Below, one piece after another: positions 1-64,000 of a stretch of 64,000 nt of DNA (its first letter is position 1; every line of letters starts with the position of its first letter). Origin of the DNA: Escherichia phage Turkey3. The stretch lies in sequence record PQ471515.1. The stretch is one strand, 5' to 3'. The translations under genes and the position numbers were made by a program. Under the pieces are notes generated by a model, which worked only from the letters and a program-made list of their open reading frames with translations, was not told the origin of the DNA and searched no databases.

Positions 1-92
1 ACAATTCCACTACCACACACTATGTGCTATCAACCCAGATTATAATACATATAAACTGTACTACATTCTCGCCCTAATATATAGGTACTGAT

Positions 93-278
93 ATGCATAG
101 AGAATACTATATACAATTTGTTAAAGGGAACTACAAACACGCCGTCCCCGTAAACCCCTTAAATTCTAATGACCCAAGTACTATATTCTTGTTCCATGAC
201 GCAATACGTACAGTACTCAATACTAAAGATGAACAGGTGCAGTACGTATTCTTACTATTACTTATATACAGACACTAA
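93..278 (+). CDS. small repeat-family protein (coding status uncertain)
   Basis: ORF within tandem repeat unit 1; weak RBS. Confidence 0.25.
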   Translation: MHREYYIQFVKGNYKHAVPVNPLNSNDPSTIFLFHDAIRTVLNTKDEQVQYVFLLLLIYRH

Positions 279-283
279 CTAAT

Positions 284-493
284 ATGAATAAAGAACATAA
301 AGAATACTACTCCAAACACCTCAGCCCCTCAGAACAAATGTTTCTAAGGACTACAGCACCTTTAAGTACTGATACTTATTTCGGCAGAGTATGCTACAAT
401 AATTGTATTCAAATGACTTTAAACGCAAACGACAATAATAACAGTACTAACCTGTACTCAGGCATCATAGGTATACTATTTCTATATGAATAA
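284..493 (+). CDS. small repeat-family protein (coding status uncertain)
   Basis: ORF within tandem repeat unit 2; N-term MNKEHKEYY. Confidence 0.3.
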   Translation: MNKEHKEYYSKHLSPSEQMFLRTTAPLSTDTYFGRVCYNNCIQMTLNANDNNNSTNLYSGIIGILFLYE

Positions 494-668
494 AGAACAT
501 AAAGACTTCTATATAAGAAAACTAACATTCGTCCCCGTAAAAATATATAAAGAATGCGACCCAAGATTATACCTATGGCACTTCAATGAGTGCATAAAAG
601 ATTCTATATACCCTAAGAACTATAAAGAACAATTGATCTCAGTACTAACACTAGTACTATCATATTAA
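486..668 (+). CDS. small repeat-family protein (coding status uncertain)
   Basis: ORF within tandem repeat unit 3; N-term MNKEHKDFY; overlaps previous stop. Confidence 0.3.
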   Translation: MNKEHKDFYIRKLTFVPVKIYKECDPRLYLWHFNECIKDSIYPKNYKEQLISVLTLVLSY

Positions 669-681
669 TAGAGATAATACT

Positions 682-873
682 ATGCATAAAGACTATAAAG
701 AGTACTATATAAGTAAACTAAAAGAAAACGAACAAGCATGGGTTAACAATTTAATCCCCCTGGCAATGACTCAATACGAATTTAATATGTGTACAAAGAT
801 TGTTTTAACTAGTAATGATATCTCTAATACGTACTACTTCCTATTAAGAGTACTATATGGTACTTTGAAATAA
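682..873 (+). CDS. small repeat-family protein (coding status uncertain)
   Basis: ORF within tandem repeat unit 4; N-term MHKDYKEYYISKL. Confidence 0.3.
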   Translation: MHKDYKEYYISKLKENEQAWVNNLIPLAMTQYEFNMCTKIVLTSNDISNTYYFLLRVLYGTLK

Positions 874-884
874 TAAGGTATACT

Positions 885-1091
885 ATGCAGAACATAAAAA
901 ACTATAAAGAGTACTATATAAGTAAACTACCACCGACTGACCAAGCATGGATTAGATCTATAATAGTACTGGCATTTAATAGATATGCATTTAACAGATG
1001 TACCGAGATTGCTATAGACCCTTATAATATTAAAGAGAATGTACAGCATAATCAGTACTACTATATGTTAATGCTTATATATAGGAAGTAA
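885..1091 (+). CDS. small repeat-family protein (coding status uncertain)
   Basis: ORF within tandem repeat unit 5; KNYKEYYISKL. Confidence 0.3.
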   Translation: MQNIKNYKEYYISKLPPTDQAWIRSIIVLAFNRYAFNRCTEIAIDPYNIKENVQHNQYYYMLMLIYRK

Positions 1092-1758
1092 TTCAACATA
1101 TAGACAGGGGGAAGCTCCGCAGGGAAAGCATTGGACAGGCTTTAACATATGTTATATATGTTAAAATTCAGCCTGGACAAATGCGATCACTAGGATTCTC
1201 CCCAGGCTAAACCCCGTAATCATATGTAGTCATAAGTAATCATATATAAACATTTATATGAGCACCGTAGAATCACAGAATGATTATATATGATTCAGTA
1301 CTGATTAGTATAGACAAGATTACTCAATAATGCTAGGGAAGGATTCAGTACTGCCCCAAAAGTATTCAGTACTGAAGGTGTCGATATCCCACTAAGTAGG
1401 CAGAGGAAGTCTGCCGTACTTTTTAGTTTCCAAGCTCCTTTTCCATTTTGCAAATTACATCAAATGTAATCAAAAGTAATCACGCAATGATTAGTACTGA
1501 ATTATTACTTTCACCTTAATTTCAATTACCCTTTTACCCTTCGGGGTAAAATTCCATTACCCCTTGAGGCTCCAGCAAAAAGTTGGTTAGTACTCCATCC
1601 TAAATCTCGATCCTAAAAATTTTGGAGTACCTATGAAATAAAAGTTGGATCTTCGAAAGTTGAAATTTACGTTGGGACGTTTATGATTTGTGGGATATAA
1701 TGATGTTTGTAGTCGAGTAGAGATGAGTATATCAGTACTGAATGGTGAAAGAAAGTTA

Positions 1759-61847: not shown

Positions 61848-61876
61848 GACATACCATAAGTTTATGATATAATGTA

Positions 61877-61910
61877 AGGTGACAGCAGAATATGTTGTCA
61901 CCTTTTTTTA
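61877..61910 (+). terminator. rho-independent terminator
   Basis: AGGTGACAgcagaatatgtTGTCACCT + T7. Confidence 0.7.
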
Positions 61911-62440
61911 ATCCTGAAAGGTTCCATATGGAAATGATTGAAGCCTAATCCACTCGAAAAGTAGAGGGTAGATGAGTAGTCCTTTCAGTACGAACAGCAA
62001 ATGAAACCCGTTAGATGATGGCATAGTTTGAACCACTCACGGCAATGCGGCTGTATAAAGAACTCCAATAGGATAAAGAGAGTTCCTCGATAGACATATA
62101 AGGATCGCACCTTACCAATTATCTAAGGGAGATTTCATGAGAAATTTGCGGTCGTAATTTATACAAAATAGTTGCGTCCAAAATTCGTGAAATCAAATAC
62201 AAGTACTGGTCATATGGTATTTGTATTATGTGTCGGGATGTTTAAGACCGACGACCGTTGCTACAAGAACCGCGATAGAGAGAAACAGAGCAACCCGCTT
62301 TCGCCTCGTAAGAGAATTCGTGATATGAACTATGTGAAGGCCACCAGCGTCAAACTTTTTTGTTCTTTCCCCTGCGGGGGGATGAAATATGCTCAAGCAA
62401 ACCCCGTCAATATTAATTAAAACAAATCATAGTACTTTCG
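61911..62440. other. non-coding, GC-richer block without credible ORF (possible structured RNA)
   Basis: No ORF with RBS; composition differs from flanks; bounded by terminator and promoter. Confidence 0.3.
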
Positions 62441-62469
62441 TTGAATTAGACATGCGAAGCGTGTATAAT
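62441..62469 (+). promoter_or_regulatory. sigma70-like promoter (TTGAAT-17-TATAAT)
   Basis: TTGAAT 62441, TATAAT 62464. Confidence 0.5.
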
Positions 62470-62530
62470 TCGACTGGTGTTGATGAAGTCAACGCCATGT
62501 ACAGTCATTGATGTTTCCATAGGAATAATG

Positions 62531-63073
62531 ATGTCATTTATTAAAAAATCTAAAAGCGTCACTTATAAAACACTAGAATTTGTTGATTCAGACAATCAGA
62601 ACCAAGACCAAGAGAATTTTACTGGTTTTGTTGTGATTAAAGAAAAGGGATGTATTTCGTACATCAAAGAGTTGCAGTGCGGTTTTGAATTAACTTCCAT
62701 TAAGTTATTCCCAACCAAGAAGCCTACAATTCTTAAAGCTCGTTATGGGAACTACTACGAAGAGCGTTATAGTAATAATCTAATCAGTGCGAAAGCACAT
62801 ATCGTCAATGGAGAACTAGAAGGAGAATATAGAAAATTCAACCCACAAGGAAAATGTGTTTGGGTTAAATACTTCAATTCAGGAAATGATGTAACATCAG
62901 AAATTATTGAGTTTTTAGGTTTAACATGTACCCTTGAAACTCTTCATGATTACAAATTTAATACTGAAGAAGAGTTTAATCTGATGATGCGTTATGGATC
63001 ACATTTTAAATTTTTATATGAATACAACATTGACAGTAGTACTTTTGATGACATAGTACTTAACTGTCTATAA
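62531..63073 (+). CDS. hypothetical protein
   Basis: ATG with AGGAA RBS; track ORF starts at upstream GTG. Confidence 0.5.
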   Translation: MSFIKKSKSVTYKTLEFVDSDNQNQDQENFTGFVVIKEKGCISYIKELQCGFELTSIKLFPTKKPTILKARYGNYYEERYSNNLISAKAHIVNGELEGEYRKFNPQGKCVWVKYFNSGNDVTSEIIEFLGLTCTLETLHDYKFNTEEEFNLMMRYGSHFKFLYEYNIDSSTFDDIVLNCL

Positions 63074-63089
63074 TCAAAGGAAATTATGT

Positions 63090-63614
63090 ATGTCGAAGAA
63101 GGATGCTTCGAAGAAAAAACAATCAGTACATTTCAGTACTGGAAAAGATAACTGGACTACTCCAAAGGATTTCTTTGAAGATTTGGATGAACTCTGGGAA
63201 TTTACACTAGATGCAGCATGTGTTAAAGAAACAGCATTGTGTGATAATTTCTTTACACCAGAAGATAATTCACTTGAACAGGACTGGGGAAACAATATCG
63301 TGTGGCTCAACCCACCGTACAGTGATTTGAAAACGTGGTTATCTAAGGCAGTTGATGCATATAACAAAGGTGCTACAGTACTGATTCTCGTACCATCAAG
63401 AACTGATACTATTGCGTTCCAGGACTATGCGTCTAAGTTATGCGACTGTATTTGTTTTATAAAAGGTCGCTTAAAGTTCGGTATCCCTGAAGAACCAGAT
63501 AAAAAGACGGATAGTGCTCCATTCCCTAGTTGTTTAATAGTACTGGATAAGTATTTGACTCCAGCTAAAATCAACTATCTTAAATCTATTGGTCAGGTGA
63601 TGAAGAACATATGA
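63090..63614 (+). CDS. DNA N6-adenine methyltransferase (phage Dam-like)
   Basis: NPPY catalytic motif (NIVWLNPPYSD) in typical context; RBS AAGGAAA. Confidence 0.7.
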   Translation: MSKKDASKKKQSVHFSTGKDNWTTPKDFFEDLDELWEFTLDAACVKETALCDNFFTPEDNSLEQDWGNNIVWLNPPYSDLKTWLSKAVDAYNKGATVLILVPSRTDTIAFQDYASKLCDCICFIKGRLKFGIPEEPDKKTDSAPFPSCLIVLDKYLTPAKINYLKSIGQVMKNI

Positions 63615-64000
63615 AAGAAACATGCGTAGTGACATTCGGAAGAATTAACCCAGTACATCGTGGTCATGGTTTAGTATTTGAAAAAGCTCAAGCACTACAA
63701 GAACAGTACAATGCGGATTTGAAAATATTCCTTAGCACCAGTACTGATGCCGTCAAAAACCCATTACCTCCTGAACTGAAAATGTACTATACAGAAGGAT
63801 TTTACCCATCTGTACAAGAAAATATCTATACAGAAGATAATCTGTTTGATATAATGAGAGAACTGGATGGAAAGTACTTAGATGTTCTTTTCATATGTGG
63901 TTCAGACAGACTTGAACCATTCCAAAAAACGCTTGACACGTACAATGGGAAGTTATATAATTTTTGTTCAATCAAGGCAGTTCAAGCTGGAATTGATCGA
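63611..64000 (+). CDS. nucleotidyltransferase, HxGH family (NadM/NMN adenylyltransferase-like), 3' partial
   Basis: N-terminal TFGRINPVHRGH matches (T/H)xGH nucleotidyltransferase motif; ATGA overlap; runs off window end. Confidence 0.5.
   Translation, partial: MKETCVVTFGRINPVHRGHGLVFEKAQALQEQYNADLKIFLSTSTDAVKNPLPPELKMYYTEGFYPSVQENIYTEDNLFDIMRELDGKYLDVLFICGSDRLEPFQKTLDTYNGKLYNFCSIKAVQAGIDR

Follow-up and report, generated by a model that had tools for sequence, protein, structure and literature searches.

We analysed a 64,000-nucleotide stretch of DNA from Escherichia phage Turkey3 (sequence record PQ471515.1; hereafter the window, meaning this whole stretch) and found that it carries the palindromic hexamer AGTACT in large excess. 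The excess reflects selection at the level of nucleic acid, the site is symmetric down to its flanking bases, and the enrichment extends throughout the genome and across a clade of related phages, in which individual sites turn over while their density is conserved. At the early promoters of the phage, the sites also lie in fixed register with the promoter elements. Our preferred reading, which we hold tentatively, is that AGTACT is a density-selected tag on double-stranded DNA that is read by a lineage-specific, symmetric protein. Over-representation of a short word, as with Chi, DNA uptake sequences or HIP1, has in each case been a pointer to a machine dedicated to reading DNA.

There are 264 copies of AGTACT across positions 1–64000, compared with 18.3 ± 4.4 in 100 dinucleotide-preserving shuffles (maximum 32; none of the 100 reached 264), and AGTACT ranks first among all 4,096 hexamers in the window. 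A preliminary description, made from the letters alone, had reported this over-representation by eye as a site every few hundred base pairs; counting gave a mean spacing of 242 bp, with strong differences in density between blocks. It had also named base or dinucleotide composition as the explanation that would overturn the claim, and the excess persisted when k-mers were counted against Markov backgrounds and shuffles. Markov models predicted 21 (order 0), 18 (order 1), 47 (order 2), 108 (order 3) and 220 (order 4) copies; only the last, from a model that already holds the enriched pentamers AGTAC and GTACT, is near the observed number. Enrichment was sharply confined to the perfect word, as one-mismatch neighbours were enriched 1.3–2.5-fold compared with 14.8-fold for AGTACT itself. 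The sequences around the sites were diverse, and the commonest 12-mer context occurred in only 13 copies.

Judged by its sequence, the window (G+C content 34.5%) belongs to a jumbo coliphage of the 121Q/RaK2 type (genus Asteriusvirus) and covers its left end, a terminal repeat followed by early genes. Its nearest records are those of phages vB_Ec-M-J and CRJP21; the window is colinear with the direct terminal repeat annotated at 1–21,525 of vB_Ec-M-J, and its left part is also colinear with the record end of CRJP21. Terminal repeats of 20–22 kb bearing early promoters have been reported for related phages (PMC11895373, PMC5259590). In the window, the terminal repeat (1–22300, + strand) holds about 60 small early genes, most with their own near-consensus sigma-70 promoter, and 152 of the AGTACT sites. 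Past about 22.3 kb lie close-packed early genes without known function and with hardly any intergenic DNA. Rfam and tRNA scans of the window returned no matches. Separately, a megablast search with positions 1–25000 gave, among the matches listed, 13 Campylobacter phage records with 80–90% identity over some part of the query.

Several lines of evidence place the selection on nucleic acid. Under a simple model of 167 open reading frames, with the predicted genes all on the + strand, 173 sites are coding and 91 non-coding, and the coding sites fall in all three frames (61, 43 and 69), as the preliminary description had noticed. When synonymous codons were shuffled within each gene, only 52.9 ± 5.9 coding sites were expected (maximum 74). 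Pooled codon shuffles run block by block gave the same picture, with 69 sites observed against 13 ± 2.9 in the terminal repeat and 91 against 21 ± 4.4 between 39 and 64 kb. Because both the dinucleotide and the codon shuffles fall short of the observed counts, the excess cannot be put down to composition, codon usage or amino-acid sequence. The bases next to the hexamer are also constrained. The preferred form, CAGTACTG, accounts for 62 of the 264 sites, in agreement with its having been described as frequent, and GAGTACTC is avoided; C precedes the hexamer at 117 sites and G at 17 (position −1), and G follows it at 125 and C at 13 (position +1). The same rule appeared in the genome-wide analysis, in which 983 sites had C at −1 in 44% and G in 10%, and G at +1 in 47% and C in 7%, with almost no information beyond ±1. 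These mirror-image flanks indicate that the recognized unit is an 8-bp palindrome on duplex DNA and not a signal on one transcript strand. The three frames, the codon-shuffle excess, the greater density in non-coding DNA and the symmetric flanks together argue for selection on nucleic acid and not on protein, which upholds the earlier suggestion that frame independence reflects selection at the DNA level.

The terminal repeat is the densest part of the window, with 12.3 sites per kb in intergenic DNA and 4.4 per kb in coding sequence. The preliminary description had placed AGTACT in nearly every intergenic region, which holds for 1–22.3 kb but not beyond, where the close-packed genes leave hardly any space between them, and at most promoters, which is borne out in the terminal repeat: 30 of 40 near-consensus sigma-70 promoters in 1–22.3 kb have at least one AGTACT nearby, in two sharp registers. 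In the first, found at 16 promoters, the site ends 1–2 bases ahead of the −10 hexamer (−7/−8), in the form AGTACTG directly followed by TATAAT. In the second, also found at 16 promoters, it lies against the −35 hexamer (−27/−30 from the −10, with −27 alone at 12), either as AGTAC running into TTGCAA or as AGTACTA followed by TTGACA. A representative early promoter (6182–6214, + strand) shows both: one AGTACT (6182–6187) shares its last T with the −35 TTGCAA, and another (6202–6207) is followed by G and then by TATAAT (6209–6214), which puts TG at the place of an extended −10 TG. A protein bound in either register would overlap the contacts of RNA polymerase. AGTACT is not a promoter element only, given that 173 of the 264 sites lie in genes and that there is no upstream peak in the main genome. 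Spacing between pairs of sites peaks at 20–23 bp; the 18-bp spacing of two sites expected of a LexA box was not seen, and we rejected that candidate.

Other features of the terminal repeat accompany these promoters. A non-coding stretch of 1.5 kb (1092–2577) contains 14 AGTACT, many as ATTCAGTACTGAA, plus other short repeats. This open-reading-frame-free stretch near the genome end has short direct repeats of GGCTAAACGGCTAGA and GGATGG..., and it may serve as an origin or have a role in packaging or injection. Between the −10 element and the ribosome-binding site, most early promoters in 1–22300 have a G/C-rich hairpin, GGGGAGA...TCTCCCC (for example at 12283–12310, 14396–14420 and 19093–19115), which looks like a conserved stem–loop in the 5′ untranslated region of nearly every early transcript. 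We also observed a repeated non-coding cassette at 11677–11780, 15326–15430, 18605–18693 and 20863–20960. Each has a promoter (TTGACT-N17-TATTAT) with the inverted repeat GACTCCGGTC in its spacer and, after it, a conserved stretch that reads AGCCCAC(A/C)GGGTGCATA; similar sequences of the form AGCCCA..GGGTGC occur at about 4600 and about 13400. These cassettes may represent a family of small RNA genes. The Escherichia coli Chi octamer, GCTGGTGG, occurs in the window on the + strand at 1983, 8447, 13065, 14525, 15425, 17784, 19193, 20770 and 20994 and on the − strand at 1971, 8385 and 62341. Chi is thus clustered in the terminal repeat, which has nine + strand copies, and vB_Ec-M-J has 32 (+) and 13 (−) copies compared with about 1.9 and 1.4 expected; this enrichment probably protects the linear ends from RecBCD.

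For whole-genome statistics we used the 378.6-kb genome of vB_Ec-M-J, assembled from eight fetched pieces, and we counted samples of RaK2, GAP32, CBB, PA5oct, T4 and E. coli K-12 (50 kb for E. coli) for comparison. vB_Ec-M-J contains 1125 AGTACT compared with 117 expected, at about 2–3 per kb (2.5 per kb) in genes for replication, structure and tail fibres, whichever way they are oriented, and 6–7 per kb in both terminal repeats. Density was 4.8 per kb in non-coding DNA compared with 2.6 per kb in coding sequence, and it was flat over gene starts and ends, with no peak upstream of genes in the main genome. Outside the repeats, spacing was near-exponential (mean 395 bp, coefficient of variation 0.91, largest gap 2.25 kb). 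Packaging, one of the roles that the preliminary description had listed, is unlikely for some 1000 evenly scattered sites. The enrichment recurred in the samples of RaK2 from Klebsiella (119 observed, 12 expected), GAP32 from Cronobacter (114 observed, 14 expected) and CBB from Pectobacterium (67 observed, 7.8 expected), in each of which AGTACT was again the top hexamer under the same flank rule. We found no enrichment in the samples of the Pseudomonas relative PA5oct (4 observed, 13 expected), of T4, which shares its E. coli host and its G+C content with the window phage (7 observed, 9.4 expected), or of E. coli K-12 (3 observed, 4.8 expected). The excess is therefore specific to the enterobacterial RaK2/121Q/GAP32 lineage and is not driven by the host.

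Comparison between genera showed that the sites turn over. At about 70% nucleotide identity, only 13–29% of AGTACT sites lie at the same aligned position, compared with 11–15% for all hexamers, yet each genus holds about 2 AGTACT per kb. Selection thus maintains density and not particular copies. The excess also stands out against the treatment of other palindromes. In vB_Ec-M-J, 23 other palindromic hexamers have no copy at all in 378 kb, among them CCATGG (54 expected), TGGCCA (50), GCATGC (48) and GGTACC (40), and in the window 26 of the 64 palindromic hexamers are at zero copies; GTGCAC, GAATTC and GATATC are spared by this purge. Such elimination argues against any general protection of the phage DNA from restriction enzymes. 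Classical restriction pressure clearly reaches this DNA, and positive selection has made AGTACT an exception; a phage can thus remove dozens of palindromes and yet multiply one.

The sites do not occur throughout the window, as had been stated; two stretches, 22233–27941 and 30006–39127, together 23% of the window, lack AGTACT altogether. The preliminary description had overlooked these two motif-free blocks, the ACT-free block described below and the sharing of the AGTACT excess across a clade. The first gap corresponds to Block B (22301–27900, + strand), a tandem array in which about 25 paralogues encode proteins of 70–85 amino acids with a conserved LGTNYQE. Viewed more broadly, the array spans 22460–28353, with further members at 29291–29521, 30471–30647 and 44579–44773, and encodes proteins of 65–90 amino acids with the motif (L/V)GTNYQE, which gave no Pfam match. 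Block B has no AGTACT compared with 2.0 ± 1.3 under the codon-aware null, and its ACT content is normal; here AGTACT is simply not enriched. A modest excess of TGTACT in this block lies mostly at one conserved Val-Leu codon pair of the paralogue family. Block C (27942–30005), a short stretch between the two motif-free blocks, has 11 AGTACT, and Block E (39128–64000), made up of tightly packed early genes, has 101 (4 per kb), almost all of them coding, together with an enrichment of sense-strand AGTACA.

The second gap has a different basis. Block D (30004–38792, + strand) is a run of 8,789 consecutive bases without ACT on the sense strand and comprises 21 ORFan genes and 723 non-coding bases. 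We found no ACT in it compared with about 167 expected, whereas the reverse complement AGT occurs 235 times, and the next longest ACT-free run in the window is 310 bp. The threonine codon ACT is used for 0 of 111 threonines in Block D compared with 176 of 444 in Block E, NAC codons precede a T-initial codon in 0 of 135 cases compared with 145 of 542, and CTN codons follow an A-final codon in 0 of 68 cases compared with 135 of 297. A shuffle that keeps the codon usage of Block D gave 55.7 ± 5.9 ACT, and the 723 non-coding bases likewise lack the triplet. In a survey of all 3-mers and 4-mers over the whole of vB_Ec-M-J, we found no comparable gap; the runner-up expects 23 copies, compared with 173 for the ACT gap. 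Directly before the ACT-poor genes lies a strong sigma-70-like promoter (29502–29530, + strand) with TTGACA, a 17-nucleotide spacer, TATAGT and an upstream TG. After this promoter, ACT occurs only at 29776 and 30003, each time within an AGTACT site, so that two genes with one ACT each are followed by 21 with none, and the series ends at a 200-bp intergenic gap (38505–38701).

The ACT-free block is also present in vB_Ec-M-J (28768–37226, 8,458 bp) and in 121Q (9359–16870 of the piece analysed, 7,511 bp). Its nucleotide identity in these relatives is about 76%, and one Block D protein has diverged between the two lineages to about 40% identity; a ban kept at such divergence must be an actively maintained property. 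We considered whether the motif-free blocks are recent imports and rejected the idea, as Block D has the same ACT-free property in 121Q at this divergence. The block is restricted to Asteriusvirus; no ACT-free block was found in the early region of GAP32. The Block D proteins gave nothing informative in Pfam or PHROGs.

Because both AGTACT and TGTACT contain ACT, neither can occur on the sense strand of Block D. AGTACA, by contrast, occurs there 48 times, with 43 copies in genes compared with 14.5 ± 3.3 in codon-aware shuffles, and it keeps the flanks of the motif (CAGTACAG): 19 of the 48 copies are preceded by C and 21 are followed by G. Selection for the motif is therefore still at work in Block D, where the nearest permitted duplex site satisfies it. 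The ban likewise accounts for the strand asymmetry of AGTACA, which had looked like an oriented signal. A strand-oriented motif with a replication origin between Blocks B and D was accordingly rejected: TGTACT in Block B lies largely at one conserved codon position of the paralogues, AGTACA in Block D follows from the ACT ban, and GC skew follows gene orientation. These observations argue that the AGTACT signal, on duplex DNA, and the ACT ban, on one strand and most simply in messenger RNA (mRNA), are two different constraints.

The sequence of Block D suggests a set of ACU-free mRNAs immune to a sequence-specific ribonuclease (RNase). Messages that lack the target triplet of an RNase have precedents in ACA-less messages, which escape MazF, and in the GCU-less mqsRA, which escapes MqsR. 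As in those cases, one triplet is missing from the sense strand in every frame and its reverse complement is plentiful; unlike them, Block D is far larger, at about 8.8 kb and 21–23 consecutive genes, and the triplet is ACU. We know of no strictly ACU-specific RNase. Enzymes of the MazF/PemK family that cut U^ACU are known, namely MazF-SEA from Salmonella and PemK from Xylella (PMC10864209). The block offers a sharp and falsifiable indication that early expression in these jumbo phages, whose early genes are mostly without known function, is shaped by a sequence-specific RNase.

One gene in the terminal repeat is of interest here. Positions 17162–17416 (+ strand) encode an 84-amino-acid protein resembling toxins of the ParE/RelE superfamily (Pfam PF24732, E = 4.6e-11), with an invariant C-terminal motif, LYEHQQYN, and a homologue in a Klebsiella phage of the RaK2 type bears the name 'YafQ-like ribonuclease toxin'. 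Its AlphaFold model (pLDDT 89.6) has YoeB, YafQ, RelK and ParE2 as its best folds in the PDB, although these matches are weak (E ~0.1–1, TM 0.4–0.5). A sequence search against the PDB gave no match, and neither did phmmer searches with RelE, ParE, YoeB, YafQ and HigB sequences. A small open reading frame (17440–17688) follows and might encode its partner. The protein is a candidate for the RNase that Block D implies and not for the reader of AGTACT, and we regard it as a lead and not as evidence. Its candidacy is weakened by the presence of the gene in a genus not shown to have an ACT-free block. It is weakened further in that RelE-type enzymes usually act in the ribosome and in frame, and the ban in Block D is frame-independent.

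Under our preferred reading, AGTACT, best as CAGTACTG and disfavoured with G before or C after it, would be a recognition site on double-stranded DNA, and selection would act on its density rather than on individual positions. The reader would be a symmetric, presumably dimeric, sequence-specific protein of the enterobacterial RaK2/121Q/GAP32 lineage, and we infer that it is encoded by the phage and that it binds the site rather than modifying it. AGTACT occurs once per 250–400 bp in the phage compared with about once per 16 kb in the 50-kb E. coli sample, a density about 50-fold higher; a reader would therefore occupy the phage chromosome along its entire length and leave host DNA almost untouched, and the word could serve as a self-tag. 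In the terminal repeat, a reader on the −35 and −10 sites would compete with RNA polymerase and so shut early transcription off, which would make it a repressor of early promoters.

Several observations weigh against this reading. We looked for the reader among the annotated regulators, the endonucleases and the Block D proteins and obtained no informative Pfam or PHROGs match. The very sharp specificity for AGTACT is at least as typical of restriction and modification enzymes as of transcription factors, and a uniform 2.5 sites per kb within late structural genes has no obvious regulatory logic. Some early promoter cassettes duplicate one another, so that the fixed registers are partly inherited. 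Finally, the TG at the 3′ end of AGTACT falls at the extended −10 TG place, and the site could be friendly to the promoter and not repressive.

A broader picture would combine the two constraints. The lineage would mark its whole chromosome with a hexamer by which a phage protein tells phage from host DNA, for early shut-off, protection or compaction, and an ACU-specific endoribonuclease of phage or host origin would destroy ordinary messages but spare the ACU-free operon of 21–23 genes in Asteriusviruses, which could still be translated. Taken whole, this combination is doubtful. If true, it would be nature's equivalent of 'single-protein production', an engineered trick. AGTACT is in any case a tractable object, being short, a commercial restriction site (ScaI) and present about 1000 times per genome. 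Its excess in at least three genera and its absence from the Pseudomonas relative make phylogenetic profiling for the reader gene possible.

Among the alternatives, the one that survives best is a methylation-linked iterated palindrome of the HIP1 kind, in which AGTACT or its GTAC core is the target of an orphan phage methyltransferase and the methylated sites are a functional mark. The mark would serve in self-recognition, in the timing of replication or repair, or in protection from AGTACT-cutting enzymes. We consider this unlikely. In its favour, the word is a sharp 6-bp unit with little flank information, and HIP1 has similar statistics, with 7402 copies compared with 60 expected, a random distribution, formation in situ and absence from some gene sets (PMC3025956). 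RaK2 DNA has been reported to be methylated (PMC3622015). In a genome that otherwise purges palindromes, about 1100 copies of a known type II target would put the phage in danger if left unprotected. The window encodes a candidate modifier, a Dam-family N6-adenine DNA methyltransferase (63090–63614, + strand; Pfam PF05869, E = 5e-32), equivalent to EcMJ_155, which is annotated 'DNA methyltransferase'; a C5-cytosine methyltransferase is encoded elsewhere in the phage genome. M.ScaI, however, is an N4-cytosine methyltransferase, and no N4-cytosine enzyme was present among the phage annotations examined. The use of AGTACA in Block D would be odd for a strict methyltransferase site. Methylation alone gives no reason for a 10–15-fold positive selection. 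This last point also bears on the earlier proposal that the DNA is modified and the word therefore not counter-selected, which would give an observed-to-expected ratio near 1, not 10–15, and which sits poorly with the elimination of 23 other palindromes. GATC is under-represented in vB_Ec-M-J (679 observed, 1125 expected), although the phage encodes a Dam-family methyltransferase. A mutational drive by deamination and very-short-patch repair was rejected, as AGTATT and AATACT are not depleted (1.6-fold).

It is improbable that the sites are access points for replication or recombination, either as a preferred start for a primase (template 5′-AGTAC-T, with core ACT) or as the target of a phage nicking endonuclease, with the palindrome serving both strands. 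One site per 250–400 bp, with a largest gap elsewhere of 2.25 kb, would suit a machine that needs frequent entry, and the phage encodes a primase, a DnaB-like helicase and many HNH endonucleases. The trinucleotide core ACT also matters in Block D, where the near-cognate TGTACT is found on the bottom strand only. Against this, Block B has no sites on either strand over 5.3–5.7 kb, no skew inflection marks an origin, and the symmetric ±1 flank rule is unexpected for a signal on a single-stranded template. To our knowledge, primases use trinucleotides and need no enriched hexamer, and we know of no rationale for a ban on priming over 8.8 kb of one strand.

We give little credence to a signal at the RNA level, in which AGUACU would be a cleavage or binding site in transcripts that contains UACU, the target of some MazF/PemK-type RNases. 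Sense-strand AGTACA is enriched and TGTACT is not, in genes of the + and − strands alike; an ACU-free block exists, as do the U^ACU cutters MazF-SEA and Xylella PemK (PMC10864209). However, this sense-strand bias is largely explained by the avoidance of ACT, the flanks are mirror-symmetric, and AGTACT is densest in promoter DNA that is not transcribed. A phage that enriched an RNase site 10-fold throughout its own genes would harm itself, and Block D keeps the rest of the site (CAGTAC.G) even though ACU has been removed.

Recognition by a protein of the Enterobacterales host, titrated or activated by the phage DNA, is very unlikely. In its favour, every genus with the enrichment has its hosts among the Enterobacterales, the Pseudomonas relative is without the motif, and the site of the nucleoid-occlusion factor SlmA, GTGAGTACTCAC, has AGTACT at its centre (PMC3020112). 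The SlmA half-site needs G1, T2, A4 and G5 with a purine at position 3 (GTRAGY, then RCTYAC; PMC3020112), however, and among the 983 sites we found 0 matches to GTRAGTACTYAC and 2 to GT.AGTACT.AC, with G at −1 in 10% only. The bases next to the core in the SlmA site, G and C, are the very ones that the phage disfavours, and T4, with the same host and G+C content, shows no enrichment; on these flanks and this control we ruled out SlmA. Least of all can the excess be an artefact of composition, of codon or dipeptide usage, or of copies of one repeat, a reading with practically nothing in its favour beyond the order-4 expectation of 220 near 264 and the duplication of some promoter cassettes, and one refuted by the dinucleotide shuffles (18), the codon shuffles (53 against 173), the diversity of contexts (13 copies of the top 12-mer) and the mostly different positions of the sites in other genera.

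In a full-text literature search, including the genome papers on RaK2, CBB and Sharanji, we found nothing linking AGTACT to these phages, and an iterated palindrome of this kind seems not to have been described before for a phage. Comparison with known systems sets it apart from each of them in some respect. The SlmA site GTGAGTACTCAC is palindromic with the same centre; unlike it, the phage sites are without the outer bases that SlmA requires, and their inner flanks are the opposite. A ScaI-type target has the identical six bases, and AGTACT has a type II-like sharpness. Phages normally avoid such sites, whereas this phage multiplies AGTACT while avoiding 23 others; a ScaI-like gene pair was not found among the phage annotations examined. 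Cluster A mycobacteriophages, which are temperate, have stoperators, that is, many genome-wide repressor sites of 13–14 bp that are asymmetric and oriented with transcription and number tens per genome. As with stoperators, one DNA word stands at early promoters and at many intragenic places; here it is 6–8 bp long, palindromic and present in about 1000 copies in a virulent jumbo phage.

Chi, DNA uptake sequences and KOPS are likewise density-selected words whose copies are individually dispensable and which have a dedicated reader protein. Those words are asymmetric and oriented, whereas AGTACT has symmetric flanks and no orientation; being palindromic, it is not an oriented word in the manner of Chi, KOPS or stoperators, and the strand bias of AGTACA is explained by the ACT ban. 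HIP1 of cyanobacteria (GCGATCGC) resembles it as a perfect short palindrome in 10–100-fold excess, scattered nearly at random over coding and non-coding DNA with about one copy every 350 bp (PMC3025956). HIP1 also arises in situ and not by transposition, is a property of lineages and is missing from particular gene blocks (PMC3025956). AGTACT shares with it an order-of-magnitude excess, dispersed placement in any frame, and in-situ origin and turnover. Unlike HIP1, it is a hexamer and not an octamer, it belongs to a virus and not to a cell, it is 2–3-fold denser in the terminal repeats, where it is locked to promoter elements, and it is multiplied in a genome that otherwise eliminates palindromes.

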